A DNA stretch of 64,000 bases from an uncultured Erysipelotrichaceae bacterium (GCA_902789225.1 CADANC010000003.1:58731-122730); one strand, 5' to 3'. Counted from the stretch's first letter, positions 4,230 through 9,331 are shown. Numbers and translations: made by a program. Notes: generated from the letters alone by a model not told the origin.

Positions 4230-5015
4230 TTATTTTTTAATATAACAATAGCCTACATTTTTACCATAATCATGAAATTCAAAATTAGCCTCAAAGATTC
4301 TTCTTTCTTTTTCAACCCTTTCAGGAAACTCATGAAATCTACTACATAAAACTATTCCATTATTTCTTAATAAGCCATATAAATTATTACTTAAATTAGT
4401 CATTTGTATATCAGTTTTTGCCCATTCAGGAATATTAGAAATCATAGCAATATCAAACTTATCATGTAAATCGACACTATCAAATAAATTAATATTTAAA
4501 AAGTCATTTTCTCTATCAGCAACACTGCCTATAGAGTTAATAGATTTAAACATAGTTTTACCATCTACTTCACCATCATGAAATAATAAGTGTACTTTTG
4601 ATGAATCTGATAAATGTTGTTTCCAAAATTTAAGAGCAACTAACTCTTCTCTTTTTTCAGGCTTAACTTTACTTAATAATTTAGCTAACCAAACATAATT
4701 ATCATCAAGAAGTTCATAAGGATATATTTCTTTGTTAATAGAAAGAGTCCACTTTCTCATATAATAATAATATAGAGCAAGTATATTTTTATCAAAAGAA
4801 TAAACTTTTTTAGCACCTAAATAATTAGCAAGAAAAAATTGATCACATGAAGCAAGTACTGTTAAAACATCTTTATCTAAGAAATCTACTTCTTTATACA
4901 TATCAACTAAATTTTCATTAGTTTCAAAATAAACTTTATCATAACCTGCTTTAGATAAATCCATCCCACTAATTATTGCACGTGAAGCTAAATAATCATC
5001 AGATATATGCATCAT
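4230..5015 (-). CDS. hypothetical cytoplasmic protein (possible Rossmann-fold methyltransferase-like)
   Basis: A 261-aa intact ORF with no signal peptide. DVLTVLASCDQFFLANYLGAKKVYSFD weakly resembles a SAM-binding motif I / acidic-loop arrangement. This is not a confident call. Confidence 0.3.
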   Translation of the reverse strand: MMHISDDYLASRAIISGMDLSKAGYDKVYFETNENLVDMYKEVDFLDKDVLTVLASCDQFFLANYLGAKKVYSFDKNILALYYYYMRKWTLSINKEIYPYELLDDNYVWLAKLLSKVKPEKREELVALKFWKQHLSDSSKVHLLFHDGEVDGKTMFKSINSIGSVADRENDFLNINLFDSVDLHDKFDIAMISNIPEWAKTDIQMTNLSNNLYGLLRNNGIVLCSRFHEFPERVEKERRIFEANFEFHDYGKNVGYCYIKK

Positions 5016-5086
5016 ACTATCACCCCAAAAGCCCTGATATTATACCAAAAATCACTAAAAAAAGCAAATAAAAAAGGATAACTAAG

Positions 5087-5989
5087 TTATCCATTTAAAT
5101 ATTCAATTGCATTTAATGCTGCTATTGTACCATCAGCTGTGGCAATAGTAACTTGTGAATATTTCTTAGTTCTAGAATCTCCAATAACATATAATCCAGG
5201 AACTTTAGTCTCAGTATTAGTAGAAATAACATAATCTCTTTCATCTAAATCAATCACATCATATGCAAATTTATTTTGAGGAATCAATCCAATATTTAAG
5301 AAAACTCCATCAACTTTCAATTTCTTTTTCTTTCCATCTACTTTAATAGATAGACCAGTTAATTCATCTTCTCCTAAATATTCTAATACATCAACATTAT
5401 ACATAATTTCAACATTATCAGTTGACTCAATTTTATTAATTAAATCTTTCTCACAAGTTAATCTATCCATCTTTTGAAGAATATATACTTTTTTAGCAAT
5501 CTTTGACATAGAATAAGCATTTATTACAGCAGAATTTCCTCCACCTATAATTGCAACATCTTTTCCTTTATAAAAAGCACCATCACAAGCAACACAAAAA
5601 TGTATTCCATGTCCTATTAATTTATCTTCATTAGGCAAATTTAGTGTTCTATAAGCTGATCCACTAGCAATAATTAATACTTTACCAAGATATTTATTAT
5701 CTTCAGTAATAACTTCTTTAATATTATCTTCTAAAACATTAATATTAGTAACTTCTTCAAGTTCAAATTCAACTCCCAATTCATCTATTTGATCAAACAT
5801 AATATCAGTAAGTTCTGATCCACTAACAGCTTTAACCCCAGGATAATTTTCAATCAAAGGAGTTGAAGCAATAGAACCACCAATAGTTTCCTTTTCAAGA
5901 ATTAATACTTTTTTTCCATCTCTTAGAAGGTAAAGGGCCGCACTCATTCCAGCAGGCCCAGCACCTATTATTATTGCATCATATATCAT
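5087..5989 (-). CDS. trxB: thioredoxin-disulfide reductase
   Basis: The N-terminal FAD-binding segment is IIGAGPAGMSAALY. The redox-active disulfide CVACDG is followed by a second GxGxxA NADPH fold (VAIIGGGNSAV). At 300 aa, the length is typical of low-Mr TrxR. Confidence 0.85.
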   Translation of the reverse strand: MIYDAIIIGAGPAGMSAALYLLRDGKKVLILEKETIGGSIASTPLIENYPGVKAVSGSELTDIMFDQIDELGVEFELEEVTNINVLEDNIKEVITEDNKYLGKVLIIASGSAYRTLNLPNEDKLIGHGIHFCVACDGAFYKGKDVAIIGGGNSAVINAYSMSKIAKKVYILQKMDRLTCEKDLINKIESTDNVEIMYNVDVLEYLGEDELTGLSIKVDGKKKKLKVDGVFLNIGLIPQNKFAYDVIDLDERDYVISTNTETKVPGLYVIGDSRTKKYSQVTIATADGTIAALNAIEYLNG

Positions 5990-5992
5990 AAA

Positions 5993-8383
5993 TTAATTGC
6001 TCTCAATATATTTCTTAATATTTGATAAGTTTTCAATTAATTCTTGATTCTTTCCATTTACTACTAATGTTGGAGCTTTCTTAACACCAAATTGTTTAGT
6101 CATATCAGGCATATCTTCAGCATCAACAAATTCATAAGTAATATGTTTTTTATCTAATAATTTCTTAGCCATCTTACAATTTGGACAAGTCTTAGTACCA
6201 AATAGTAATAATCCATCTTTAGCATCACTCTTTAAAATAGCTTTAGCTGATGCTTTCTTAGCTTCTTCTTTTACTTTTTCAATTTTCTTTTCACAGTTAT
6301 CTAAACTATATTCTTTACGCATTTCAAATTCTTTTGATTTTCCATCATTCCAGTTCTTAACAGGACGATAGTAACCAGTAATTCTAGAATATACTTCAGT
6401 ATCTTCTCCACAAATAGGACATTTATATACTTCACCAGTAATATATCCATGATTCTTACATACAGAATATGTAGGAGAAATTGTATAGTAAGGTAATTTA
6501 TAATTTTCAGCAATCTTTCTAACTAAGTTAGCACAAGTCTTCCAATCTGGCATTCTTTCTCCTAAGAATGTATGGAATACTGTACCACTTGTATATAAAG
6601 TTTGTAATTCATCTTGAATATCTAATGCACTAAATACGTCATCAGTATATCCAACAGGTAAATGACTAGAATTAGTATAGTAAGGAGTTTCATCATTAGA
6701 AGCAGTAATAATATCTGGATATAATTCCTTATCTTTCTTAGCTAAACGATAAGTTGTAGATTCAGCAGGAGTAGCTTCTAAGTTATATAAATCTCCATAT
6801 TGTTCTTGATAATCAGATAATTTTTCTCTCATGAAGTTTAATACTTCTTTAGTCCATTTAATTGCTTTTTCATGAGTTAAATCTTCTTTAATCCATTTAG
6901 CATTTAAGCAAGCTTCATTCATACCAACTAAACCAATAGTAGAGAAATGATTATTAAATGTTCCTAAATATCTCTTAGTATATGGATATAATCCTTCATC
7001 TAATAATTTAGTAACAACATCTCTTTTTATTTTTAAAGATTCAGCTGCTAAATCCATTAAATGTTCTAATCTATCATAGAATTCTTCTTCAGTCTTTGAA
7101 GTATAAGCAATTCTTGGCATATTGATTGTAACTACACCGATTGATCCAGTAGATTCACCTGATCCAAAGAAACCACCTGATTTTTTACGTAATTCACGTA
7201 AATCTAATCTTAAACGACAACACATTGATCTAACATCACTTGGTTCCATATCACTATTAATATAATTTGAGAAATAAGGAGTACCATATTTAGCTGTCAT
7301 TTCAAATAATAATTTATTATTTTCAGATTCTTTCCAATCAAAATCTTTAGTAATAGAATATGTAGGAATTGGATATTGGAATCCACGTCCATTAGCATCT
7401 CCTTCAATCATAATTTCGATAAATGCTTTATTAACCATATCCATTTCTTTTTGACAATCTTTATATTTGAAATCCATTTCTTTTCCACCAACGATAGCAT
7501 TTAATTCAGCTAAATCGTTTGGAACAGTCCAGTCTAATGTAATATTTGTAAATGGTGCTTGAGTACCCCAACGAGAAGGAGTATTAACCCCATATACAAA
7601 TGATTGAACAGCTTGTTTAACTTCTTTATATGATAAATTATCTACTTTAACAAAAGGAGCTAAATATGTATCAAATGATGAAAATGCTTGTGCTCCAGCC
7701 CATTCATTTTGCATAATACCTAAGAAGTTAACCATTTGATTAGTTAAAGTACTTAAATGTTTTGCAGGACTAGAAGTTATCTTTCCAGGAACTCCACCTA
7801 ATCCTTCTTGAATTAATTGTTTTAAACTCCATCCAGCACAATAACCAGTTAACATAGATAAATCATGTAAATGAAAATCACAATTTCTATGAGCATTAGC
7901 AATTTCTTCTGGATAAACTTCGCTTAACCAATAATTAGCAGTAATAGCTCCACTGTTAGATAAAATTAAACCACCTACTGAATAAGTAACAGTAGAATTT
8001 TCTTTAACTCTCCAGTCAGATACATTTAAATAACTATTAACTACTTTCTTATAATCTAATAAAGCTCCATCCATAGCTCTTTGCTTTTCATGTAACTTTC
8101 TATATAAAATATAGCTTTTAGCTACATCAGCATATTCAGCTTTAATTAATACTCTTTCAACACTATCTTGAATATCTTCTACTCCAACGATATTGTTTTT
8201 TACTTTATCATTGAAATCAGAAGTAACTTTAAGTGATAAGAAATCAACTACTTCTTTATCATAATCCTTATCTAAAGCTTCGAAAGCTTTAATTATAGCA
8301 TCACTAATCTTTTCTAATTTAAATGCTACTATTTTTCCATCTCTTTTTCTTACTTTATACATACCCATTCTCCTCTTATACAT
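5993..8383 (-). CDS. nrdD: anaerobic ribonucleoside-triphosphate reductase (class III) with a C-terminal glutaredoxin/NrdH-like CPNC domain
   Basis: The N-terminus is an ATP-cone (KVRKRDGKIVAFKLEKISDAI). The C-terminal glycyl-radical signature is SRITGYYRP, preceded by a Cys/His Zn-ribbon (CKNHGY...CPICG). An extra thioredoxin-fold module of about 75 aa sits at the extreme C-terminus (LLLFGTKTCPNCKMAKK...KKAPTLVVNG). The gene overlaps the nrdG stop by 8 nt. Confidence 0.9.
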   Translation of the reverse strand: MYKRRMGMYKVRKRDGKIVAFKLEKISDAIIKAFEALDKDYDKEVVDFLSLKVTSDFNDKVKNNIVGVEDIQDSVERVLIKAEYADVAKSYILYRKLHEKQRAMDGALLDYKKVVNSYLNVSDWRVKENSTVTYSVGGLILSNSGAITANYWLSEVYPEEIANAHRNCDFHLHDLSMLTGYCAGWSLKQLIQEGLGGVPGKITSSPAKHLSTLTNQMVNFLGIMQNEWAGAQAFSSFDTYLAPFVKVDNLSYKEVKQAVQSFVYGVNTPSRWGTQAPFTNITLDWTVPNDLAELNAIVGGKEMDFKYKDCQKEMDMVNKAFIEIMIEGDANGRGFQYPIPTYSITKDFDWKESENNKLLFEMTAKYGTPYFSNYINSDMEPSDVRSMCCRLRLDLRELRKKSGGFFGSGESTGSIGVVTINMPRIAYTSKTEEEFYDRLEHLMDLAAESLKIKRDVVTKLLDEGLYPYTKRYLGTFNNHFSTIGLVGMNEACLNAKWIKEDLTHEKAIKWTKEVLNFMREKLSDYQEQYGDLYNLEATPAESTTYRLAKKDKELYPDIITASNDETPYYTNSSHLPVGYTDDVFSALDIQDELQTLYTSGTVFHTFLGERMPDWKTCANLVRKIAENYKLPYYTISPTYSVCKNHGYITGEVYKCPICGEDTEVYSRITGYYRPVKNWNDGKSKEFEMRKEYSLDNCEKKIEKVKEEAKKASAKAILKSDAKDGLLLFGTKTCPNCKMAKKLLDKKHITYEFVDAEDMPDMTKQFGVKKAPTLVVNGKNQELIENLSNIKKYIESN

Positions 8384-9053
8384 ACCTAACTATAACATTA
8401 GGATATTCTTTTAATTCTTCTTTTAATTTTAAAAGTTCGTCTCGGCTAAAACTTTTAATATTTTTGTCTTTAACAACATCAGTATATTGAAAGTTTTGTA
8501 AATACAATTTACTATCTCCTATTAATTTAAGAATCTTAATAATGTCTTTCTTATCATGAACATCCTTCATAATAGTAGTTCTAAATTCGTATTTAATATT
8601 AGATTTTTTGATAAGATCTATACTTTCAAGTATTTTGTTAAAGTCAATCTTCTTGTTAATAACCTTCATATACTTATCTGGTATTGCTTTAATATCCATA
8701 GCTATATAATCTACTAAGTTATTATCAAGTATTTCTTTTAACATAGCAGGATTATAACCATTTGTATCTAATTTAATATCTAATTTAAATTCTTTAACTT
8801 TTTTAATAAAAGGTATTAAATCATCCCAAATAGTAGGTTCACCACCAGATATTACAACACCATCCAAGATTTTTCGTCTCTTATAAAGATAAGCCATAAC
8901 ATAATCTTCATCTATTGTTTCAGCTTTGTTATCAACTAAGTCTCTATTATAACAATAAGAACAATTAAAATTACAACCTTTGGTGAAGATAATACATGCA
9001 AGATGTTCCGGAAAATCTTGCGTTGTTAATTTATTAAGTCCACCTATCTTCAT
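8376..9053 (-). CDS. nrdG: anaerobic ribonucleotide reductase activating protein (radical SAM)
   Basis: The CxxxCxxC cluster is GCNFNCSYC. I placed the start at MKIGGLNKLTTQDF (ATG at 9053) because it has a strong RBS (aaggaggg). The track ORF begins 27 codons further upstream. Confidence 0.85.
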   Translation of the reverse strand: MKIGGLNKLTTQDFPEHLACIIFTKGCNFNCSYCYNRDLVDNKAETIDEDYVMAYLYKRRKILDGVVISGGEPTIWDDLIPFIKKVKEFKLDIKLDTNGYNPAMLKEILDNNLVDYIAMDIKAIPDKYMKVINKKIDFNKILESIDLIKKSNIKYEFRTTIMKDVHDKKDIIKILKLIGDSKLYLQNFQYTDVVKDKNIKSFSRDELLKLKEELKEYPNVIVRYV

Positions 9054-9080: not shown

Positions 9081-9108
9081 ATTGTAACACAGAGAAGAAT
9101 TATTCCAA
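9081..9108 (-). promoter_or_regulatory. predicted sigma-A promoter of the nrdG-nrdD-trxB operon, with an extended -10
   Basis: Read on the minus strand, TTGGAA is the -35, a 16-nt spacer follows, and TGtTACAAT is the extended -10. The element lies about 30 nt upstream of the nrdG start. Confidence 0.4.
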
Positions 9109-9244
9109 TGTTGCATCTGCAACATTTTGAACATTTTTTTTAAAAATTTTTTTTCAATTAAAAAAGGCCCTTATTTTTAAACAAAATCAGAAAAAAATAA
9201 TAATTGTACACTAGAAGAAAACTTTACATTTAATTTACTAGGCA

Positions 9245-9271
9245 TTAAAAAACTAGTCTATTTTAGACTAG
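9245..9271 (-). terminator. rho-independent terminator after the P-type ATPase gene
   Basis: The stem is ctagtcta / tagactag with a 3-nt loop. A run of six T follows on the minus strand. Confidence 0.5.
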
Positions 9272-9331
9272 TAAAATTATTGCTTTTTCTTTTTATATCA
9301 TGGAATAATAAGAGTCAACTATAAAATATCA

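Follow-up and report, generated by a model that had tools for sequence, protein, structure and literature searches.

Which reductant serves the class III ribonucleotide reductases (RNRs) of the large branch whose finger loop carries the double-cysteine sequence MCCR, and in which the parts for formate or thioredoxin are both present (PMC9669993)? Class III RNRs supply the DNA precursors of strict anaerobes, including much of the gut microbiota, and the question is raised afresh by a locus in a 64,000-nt stretch of DNA from an uncultured Erysipelotrichaceae bacterium (GCA_902789225.1 CADANC010000003.1:58731-122730; the whole stretch is called the window here, and its numbering is used throughout). 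The genes nrdG, nrdD and a trxB-like gene follow one another on the minus strand (window 9053-5087), and the nrdD product carries a redoxin domain at its C terminus. These positions agree with those of a first-pass annotation of the locus, down to the start of the trxB-like gene 3 nt past the nrdD stop codon (5993-5995). Together, the three genes probably constitute a self-contained, redoxin-dependent class III RNR system, in which a redoxin tethered to the catalytic subunit and a dedicated flavoprotein reductase would take over the task of supplying electrons.

The central element of this system is the nrdD::redoxin fusion gene (5993..8362, minus strand, as are all gene and protein features given below). 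Translation most probably begins with ATG 8362, which has GAGGAG ahead of it and yields a protein of 789 aa, the length called in public homologues; residue numbers in this text run to 796 aa and refer to the open reading frame (ORF) 8383-5993. The N-terminal region is an ATP-cone (8087..8356; aa 10-99; PF03477, E 5.4e-19), and the catalytic NRDD domain is present at full length (PF13597, aa 128-692, E 8.5e-194), with profile scores of 1155 bits for NF006126 (cutoff 548) and 539 bits for TIGR02487 (cutoff 326). The partner activase NrdG (TIGR02495 NrdG2, 213.7 bits against a cutoff of 131; Pfam Radical_SAM and Fer4_12) is encoded directly upstream. By these features the enzyme is a class III RNR. 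From the glycyl-radical motif SRITGYYRP (6362..6388; aa 666-674, with the radical site at G670), the reading frame runs on through a linker of ~38 aa into a C-terminal domain of 72 aa (5996..6211; aa 725-796), which holds CPNC at 733-736, the cis-Pro residues APT at 770-772 within KKAPTLVV (aa 768-775), and an NxSNI motif. In all, 122 aa follow SRITGYYRP, so the first-pass estimate of about 100 aa was roughly right.

Several lines of evidence assign this C-terminal extension to the thioredoxin fold, as the first-pass annotation had proposed. Pfam Glutaredoxin PF00462 matches aa 726-778 at 39 bits (cutoff 22.9; E 9.7e-10), and the Thioredoxin_3 and Thioredoxin profiles match the same stretch more weakly. 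AlphaFold2 (AF2), given 20 homologous domains, modelled aa 721-796 with a predicted local distance difference test score (pLDDT) of 92; the model displays the beta-alpha-beta-alpha-beta-beta-alpha order of a minimal thioredoxin fold, with the CxxC at the start of helix 1 and the cis-Pro before strand 3; a Foldseek search with this model returned thioredoxin and glutaredoxin structures at probability 1.0. Assignment to a named family is another matter. Profiles for glutathione-dependent glutaredoxins failed (TIGR02181, 22.8 bits against a cutoff of 90; TIGR02180, 16.3 against 87; NF007923, 16.9 against 129), and although NrdH (TIGR02194, 26.9 bits, cutoff 85.75) and YruB (TIGR02196, 28 bits, cutoff 88.55) are the best-scoring named small-redoxin families, both fall far below their cutoffs. 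Neither the NrdH signature SGF(R/N)P nor the glutaredoxin signature motifs (TVP ... GGxdD) occur in the domain; read by eye and not by alignment, NxSNI stands where we take the GG motif of glutaredoxins to sit. The label 'glutaredoxin-like' in the first-pass annotation thus holds at the Pfam level but goes no further, given the missing Grx and NrdH motifs and the low NrdH and YruB scores.

A profile of the domain run against solved structures retrieved Pyrococcus and Aquifex PDO or 'glutaredoxin-like' proteins, the desulfothioredoxin of Desulfovibrio vulgaris (2L6C), and MJ0307, and among these solved relatives no glutathione-dependent glutaredoxin ranks above them by sequence. The PDO, Grx-like and MJ0307 proteins presumably depend on a flavoprotein of the thioredoxin reductase type and not on glutathione. 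Desulfothioredoxin (DvTrx3) is the partner of an NADH-preferring reductase, DvTR3 (PMC5627308). So the fused domain appears to form a subfamily of its own, NrdH- or thioredoxin-like in its working and distinct from the glutathione-type glutaredoxins.

If a redoxin is to serve as reductant, the active site of NrdD should be equipped to receive its electrons, and the residues point that way. The beta-A cysteine C182 lies within GYCAGW (7829..7846) and is invariant in 81/81 orthologues; the finger loop (7214..7225) reads M387-C388-C389-R390, a double cysteine with the methionine kept, and is found as RSMCCRL in 80/81; and E536, at the position of the presumed active-site base in enzymes of the NrdD2 type, lies within NLEATPAE (6761..6784), again in 81/81. 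In a HMMER alignment with the Thermotoga maritima NrdD (4coi), to which the window protein is only distantly related (153 bits), YCAGW pairs with YCFAY (C125), SMCCRL with ASCCRL (C329/C330), and YNLEATPAE with FNIEQVPAE (E495). The formate-type enzyme of P. copri (8p23) has MGCR and SILATPAE at the same positions, without the extra cysteine and with leucine for glutamate; C389 aligns with the radical cysteine of its MGCR. On the account given in PMC4493059, the subtypes of Wei and colleagues are defined by a third active-site cysteine together with a glutamate in NrdD2, and by the cysteine without the glutamate in NrdD3. With both the double-cysteine loop and the active-site glutamate in place, the active site of the window enzyme is of the thiol (NrdD2) type, and the thiol-type cysteines foreseen in the first-pass annotation were found where the T. 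maritima enzyme has them.

The fusion is not a peculiarity of one genome. A search of a 5.8-billion-protein collection, of which the 120 best matches were examined, returned proteins of 773-950 aa that are 79-100% identical to the window protein where identity was reported, nearly all of them with PF00462, ATP-cone and NRDD domains. In parallel, a locus scan covering one genome per GTDB species found 592 relatives, and the best 80 loci (L001-L080) were examined; these come from gut and rumen metagenome-assembled genomes and isolates of the Oscillospiraceae, Christensenellaceae, Acutalibacteraceae, Lachnospiraceae, Bacilli, Erysipelotrichaceae and Lentisphaeria, and include Ruminococcus turbiniformis. 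In all 80 loci and all 120 best homologues the fusion is in frame, RITGYYRP leading into the redoxin domain. TCPNC is nearly invariant (a few proteins have CPKC or CPGC), and A-P-T-[LM] and N-x-S-N-I are conserved. A trxB-like ORF directly follows the fused nrdD in ~70/80 loci at a gap of -20 to +246 nt (median ~12 nt), and nrdG usually stands ahead of nrdD. Among relatives without the fusion, the closest are 688-711 aa long, have MCCR and share 50-55% identity. Clustering at 50% identity reduces the fused clade to a few representatives, some with inteins.

Short proteins of 80-90 aa with CPNC were considered as stand-alone redoxins of an ancestral split operon, an idea that was rejected when the short matches turned out to be fragments; two apparent stand-alone copies on long contigs are broken fused genes, one with a 1-nt frameshift (L083) and the other with an N-run scaffold gap (L081). 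Other variants deserve mention in their own right. Many of the proteins found are 1000-1900 aa long and match in 2-5 stretches; many close NrdD relatives, among them the fused P0125, P0126 and P0133, thus appear to contain large insertions, presumably inteins. Two proteins, P0152 (782 aa, 47% identical to the window protein) and P0135 (666 aa, 55%), have neither the beta-A cysteine nor the CC of the finger loop nor a glycyl-radical motif, and look like catalytically dead NrdD paralogues; P0152 has kept a redoxin-like tail, one without CxxC. A more distant MCCR enzyme, P0173 (895 aa), ends in a thioredoxin-like domain of another kind (CPKC ... VPLAI), set behind a longer linker, which suggests that fusion of a redoxin to NrdD arose more than once. 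Finally, the fused homologue P0044 is named 'ribonucleoside-triphosphate reductase (formate)' by one source, probably an annotation carry-over in view of its NrdD2-type residues and fused redoxin.

A redoxin requires a reductase, and the trxB-like gene (5087..5989; 300 aa) is the evident candidate. Its product has all three of the motifs looked for in a TrxB protein: the FAD-binding GAGPAG (aa 9-14), the CVAC dithiol (132-135), and GGGNSA (149-154). The site expected to hold HRRxxxR, the motif for the 2'-phosphate of NADPH, reads QKMDRLT (aa 172-178; window 5456-5476); in alignments, VYILQKMDRLT falls opposite HRRDTLR in 7aaw and HRRDHLK in 4zn0. As the motif VxxxHRRDxxR separates NADPH enzymes from those that depend on NADH, on ferredoxin or on a donor not yet known (PMC5627308, PMC10880999), its loss makes NADPH doubtful as the donor, and with the TIGR01292 score also short of its cutoff (289 bits against 343.45), the NADPH-fed path drawn in the first-pass annotation is not supported. 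Enzymes of the FFTR type are recognised by the absence of both GxGxxA and HRRxxxR and by clustering with the clostridial FFTRs (PMC10880999); the window reductase is without HRR but with GGGNSA. Against solved structures it scores much higher with NTR-like enzymes (7aaw, 207 bits; 3cty, 197 bits) than with an FFTR (6gna, 122 bits). Also among the closest solved relatives, 7JYP, which we take to be a Thermotogales enzyme akin to the NADH-preferring T. maritima thioredoxin reductase (TR), has QNLPYLT at the donor site, and 3CTY, the Thermoplasma acidophilum thioredoxin reductase (TrxR), has EYMPKYMCE. The T. acidophilum enzyme is reported not to use NAD(P)H (PMC5627308, PMC10880999). Since HRRxxxR is missing and GGGxxA kept, NADH or another non-NADPH donor is likelier than NADPH; the GGGxxA motif suggests a dinucleotide, and NADH is the best guess, one to be held with low confidence.

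The same site varies among relatives. The 70 operon-linked reductases comprise 38 of a Q-type (Q[NDK][LM]xxLT with GGGNxA, including the window enzyme), 15 of the canonical HRR-type (HRRxxFR), and 13 with TLFDKFF and a degenerate GDANTA. This diversity suggests that different lineages draw on different electron donors; the reductase has kept its place in the operon while its donor site diversified. Genes for ferredoxin or rubredoxin, sought as a clue to the donor, are linked to the operon in 2/81 loci only and form no pattern, and no other trxB, trxA or WCGPC-type thioredoxin was seen in the 64-kb window.

Between glycyl-radical domain and redoxin lies the linker (6212..6325; aa 687-724), a low-complexity, variable segment with a single cysteine, C704, and with pLDDT < 50 in a full-length AF2 model that is itself weak throughout. 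Its length and sequence vary freely among orthologues. Even so, 35/81 orthologues carry a CxC or CxxC pair there (CEC, CDC, CAC, CGC and others; examples are L003, L010, L027 and L066), where ~2 would be expected from composition. External shuttle cysteines are not known in class III RNRs (PMC4390871), and the linker pairs could be such a shuttle dithiol; as the window linker has one cysteine only, a shuttle of this kind cannot be essential.

The redoxin fusion also occurs in phages. A scan of IMG/VR contigs yielded 64 NrdD relatives (L084-L147), ~29 of which carry the same C-terminal CPNC domain (e.g. L095 2992-5007 and L100 3022-5037), and PHROG matches to an exonuclease, DNA polymerase, dCMP deaminase and thymidylate kinase give the phage context. 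In many of the fused phage proteins the ATP-cone is missing and the linker is only ~10 aa. No trxB was found within 3 kb of nrdD in any of the 64 loci. Phages with a redoxin-fused enzyme and without a reductase could plug into the reductase of the host, on which they apparently rely. In another arrangement (L131 2998-3243; also L127, L132 and L133), the nrdD is unfused and of the MCCR type, and its start is overlapped by a separate 81-aa NrdH-like gene with CPQC and VTGFN that lies directly upstream; in the L131 type, nrdG follows nrdD inside a nucleotide-metabolism cluster with dCMP deaminase, thymidylate kinase and DNA polymerase. A redoxin that is fused to NrdD in some lineages and adjacent in others is a classic signature of functional partnership.

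The gene structure at the locus fits transcription as a unit. The nrdG gene (8376..9053; 225 aa; ORF 9134-8376) most probably starts at ATG 9053, the start given in the first-pass annotation, with the ribosome-binding site AAGGAGGG ahead of it. Depending on the nrdD start, nrdG and nrdD overlap (8383) or are separated by 13 nt (8362). No terminator-like site was found between the three genes, and terminator-like hairpins on the minus strand mark both ends: upstream, ACTAGTCTAAAATAGACTAGT followed by a T-run (9252..9272) closes the gene for a P-type ATPase, the upstream neighbour (ends 9332), and downstream, GGATAACTTAGTTATCC followed by the T-run TTTTTTATTT (5076..5092) overlaps the trxB stop codon. 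The three genes thus look like a single operon, as had been supposed at first, with co-transcription suggested by small gaps and boundary hairpins. A promoter-like site on the minus strand, TTGGAA-16-(TG)TACAAT (9081..9108), stands upstream of nrdG as a consensus match. Abutting its -35 hexamer is a perfect 8-2-8 palindrome, ATGTTGCA-GA-TGCAACAT (9108..9125), a candidate operator. The one promoter-like match close to trxB, at 6006-5978, was considered as a separate trxB promoter and rejected, because its -10 hexamer includes the trxB start codon and because such matches are no commoner in the region than in shuffled sequence (32 vs 40.3).

Regulation of the operon can be traced in part through its orthologues. 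Of 58 orthologous operons, 19 have classical NrdR boxes (ACACAAGATATTGTGT-like) ahead of nrdG (e.g. L016 at -232/-64/-32 and L052 at -89), so that in these operons trxB belongs to an RNR regulon. Upstream of the window nrdG a search for an NrdR box found none; the palindrome at 9108-9125 is distinct from that box and may be the operator of some other regulator. L007 and L016 have TGTTGC-N-GCAACA sites loosely similar to the palindrome, ~200 nt ahead of nrdG. Searches for riboswitches or other RNA elements with Rfam at the gathering threshold gave only two tRNAs in the window. Directly downstream of the operon, a 261-aa ORF (4230-5015, minus strand) has its own extended -10-like TGGTATAAT and is without a Pfam match at E <= 0.01.

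Domain architecture, active-site residues, fold, operon structure, and the conservation of fusion and synteny are direct observations, and they allow a path to be drawn whose every electron-transfer step, together with the identity of the reductase's donor, we infer. NrdG would install the glycyl radical on NrdD. In each turnover, C182 and C388, the first cysteine of the finger loop, would be oxidised to a disulfide, with E536 acting as the base. The CPNC domain, tethered by its flexible linker behind the glycyl-radical domain, would then re-reduce the C182/C388 disulfide in cis or across the dimer, and would itself be re-reduced, via FAD and the CVAC dithiol, by the TrxB-like flavoprotein made from the same mRNA. 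The least certain steps of this path are the first and the last, from donor to reductase and from CPNC to C182/C388. It is tempting, although tentative, to extend the scheme to the whole clade: a relay might run from reductase to tethered redoxin, over an optional CxC shuttle in the linker, to the C182/C388 disulfide, with the Q-, HRR- and TLFDK-GDANTA-type reductases drawing the electrons for dNTP synthesis from NADH, NADPH or some non-pyridine donor rather than from formate, and with phages using the reductase of their host.

Several observations weigh against a redoxin-dependent enzyme, or at least against its simplest form. The finger loop keeps Met387, which leaves formate as well as redoxin use possible: the methionine is present in 83% of double-cysteine enzymes, and MCCR enzymes thus have the parts for either reductant (PMC9669993). 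The first-pass expectation of a thiol-type rather than a formate-type enzyme therefore stands as far as the third cysteine and the glutamate go, but exclusive use of thiols is unsupported. The adjacent trxB is missing in ~10/80 genomes and in all 64 phage loci, and the reductase scores below the TIGR01292 cutoff. A 9-kDa redoxin would have to reach a buried active-site disulfide in a class of enzymes for which external shuttle cysteines are not known (PMC4390871), and the window linker has a single cysteine. A full-length NrdD model, made to see whether the redoxin docks, came from a shallow alignment of sequences 80-94% identical and is too poor to be read (mean pLDDT 63).

The methionine is also the starting point for the main rival, an unlikely one, in which formate stays the catalytic reductant by a Met-Cys thiosulfuranyl route and the redoxin and TrxB-like protein only activate or repair the enzyme, keeping cysteines of the Zn-ribbon or glycyl-radical domain in the reduced state and thereby allowing radical installation by NrdG after oxidative episodes. 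Conservation of Met387 in 80/81 orthologues and the dual equipment of MCCR enzymes would fit, as would the position of the redoxin right behind the Zn-ribbon and glycyl-radical domain and the '(formate)' name of P0044; moreover, thioredoxin is cited as activating the formate-type Escherichia coli enzyme (Padovani 2001, as cited in PMC4390871). Yet the third cysteine and the glutamate, which define the thiol subtype, are invariant, although a formate mechanism would have no need of them; to maintain a dedicated reductase in the operon, as ~70/80 species do, would be a heavy investment for repair; and phages retain the redoxin domain even with minimal linkers. Less probable still, indeed quite improbable, is that the trxB-like gene encodes a general thioredoxin reductase that follows nrdD by chance, the fused domain being served by any cellular system. 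The genomes and phage loci without an adjacent trxB would fit, and the 64-kb window offers no other trxA or trxB for comparison; against this stand the tight synteny (median gap ~12 nt) over several families and the Lentisphaeria, and the atypical nature of the linked reductases, of which 15/70 are of the canonical HRR-type, a pattern that fits a specialised paralogue better than an NADPH housekeeping enzyme. That assembly error or a frameshift joined nrdD to a separate redoxin gene has a practically negligible chance of being true: in a few database entries a shortened nrdD is indeed followed by a 'stand-alone' protein of 80-90 aa, but the fusion is in frame in every one of the bacterial loci and best homologues and in ~29 phage loci, and the frameshift of L083 and the N-gap of L081 show that such entries are themselves artefacts. 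The junction, flagged at the outset as a possible artefact, is genuine.

The findings matter beyond this locus. A fused redoxin conserved over many lineages, together with a reductase in the same operon, is strong genomic evidence for a thiol pathway, and the three-protein system is compact enough to make the reductant question directly testable. A probable mis-annotation, that of the homologue named '(formate)', is flagged as well. If the redoxin-dependent reading is correct, the dNTP supply of hosts and phages would be tied to the NADH or ferredoxin pool and not to formate metabolism. Should the wider relay hold as well, redoxin dependence would be the prevalent mode in gut MCCR class III RNRs, and class III RNRs would have, in the linker CxC, their first known external shuttle dithiol.

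How, then, does the window system compare with those already described? Thioredoxin-dependent NrdD2 and NrdH-dependent NrdD3 enzymes are established, on the accounts of PMC4493059 and PMC9176816, and the NrdD2 enzymes of Neisseria bacilliformis and T. maritima are reported to be reduced by thioredoxin and thioredoxin reductase (Wei et al. 2014, as relayed in PMC4493059 and PMC9669993). The window enzyme shares with these two the beta-A cysteine, the double-cysteine loop, the glutamate and, by prediction, a protein dithiol as reductant. They differ in that the N. bacilliformis and T. maritima enzymes use a free general TrxA, an NADPH reductase encoded elsewhere, and an SCCR loop without methionine, whereas the window has a covalently attached redoxin, a reductase that lacks the NADPH motif and is encoded within the operon, and an MCCR loop. 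In work by Wei and colleagues from 2015, the NrdD3 of Methanosarcina barkeri reportedly comes with an operon-encoded NrdH and a ferredoxin:disulfide reductase (summarised in PMC9176816, Table 1). Common to that system and the present one are a class III operon that supplies both a small redoxin and a disulfide reductase of its own, and, presumably, a donor suited to anaerobic carriers; the M. barkeri enzyme, however, is without the glutamate, its NrdH is a separate protein, and its reductase is a [4Fe-4S] enzyme where the window has a flavoprotein of the TrxB family.

Precedent for fusion itself comes from class I. In the Facklamia ignava protein Grx::ATP-cone::NrdB, the fused glutaredoxin is a working RNR reductant (PMC6187632), and a redoxin domain is likewise joined to an RNR subunit, but the F. 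ignava domain is N-terminal and of the glutathione-dependent GrxC type, unlike that of the window fusion. Table S1 of the same study lists one Glutaredoxin:NrdD fusion, from Lachnospiraceae bacterium TWA4 (subclass NrdDd), without analysis and without mention of its breadth or of a linked reductase (PMC6187632). For the reductase, the nearest parallels are the thioredoxin reductase/redoxin pairs of anaerobes: D. vulgaris TR3 with desulfothioredoxin (NADH), T. maritima TR with a Grx-like protein (NADH-preferring), T. acidophilum TrxR and DvTRi (non-NAD(P)H), and clostridial FFTR (ferredoxin) (PMC5627308, PMC10880999). Like these, the window pair has a small redoxin of non-canonical type beside a low-Mr thioredoxin reductase scaffold with CxxC and FAD motifs and an altered 2'-phosphate site. 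What sets the window reductase apart from TRi and FFTR-type enzymes is that its GGGxxA pyrophosphate motif is kept. To our knowledge, none of those pairs is dedicated or fused to an RNR. For E. coli's class III RNR a redoxin is also described as acting on NrdD, as proposed here, but the case as cited concerns the general thioredoxin system in an activating role on a formate-type enzyme, and not a catalytic reductant joined to the enzyme (Padovani et al. 2001, as given in PMC4390871).

Thiol-dependent NrdD2 and NrdD3 enzymes, a methanogen RNR operon with redoxin and reductase, and a fused glutaredoxin in class I are thus established. A literature search, which did not extend to Wei et al. 2014 and 2015 (papers that may note some of these points), found no account of how widespread the fusion is, of its tight link to a TrxB-like reductase of atypical kind, of the way the donor site has diversified, or of the versions carried by phages. 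Set beside the known systems, the nrdG-nrdD-trxB operon of the window is a real, conserved and uncharacterised variant among class III RNR systems of a known type, one that joins redoxin and catalytic subunit in a single polypeptide and places the reductase next to them.

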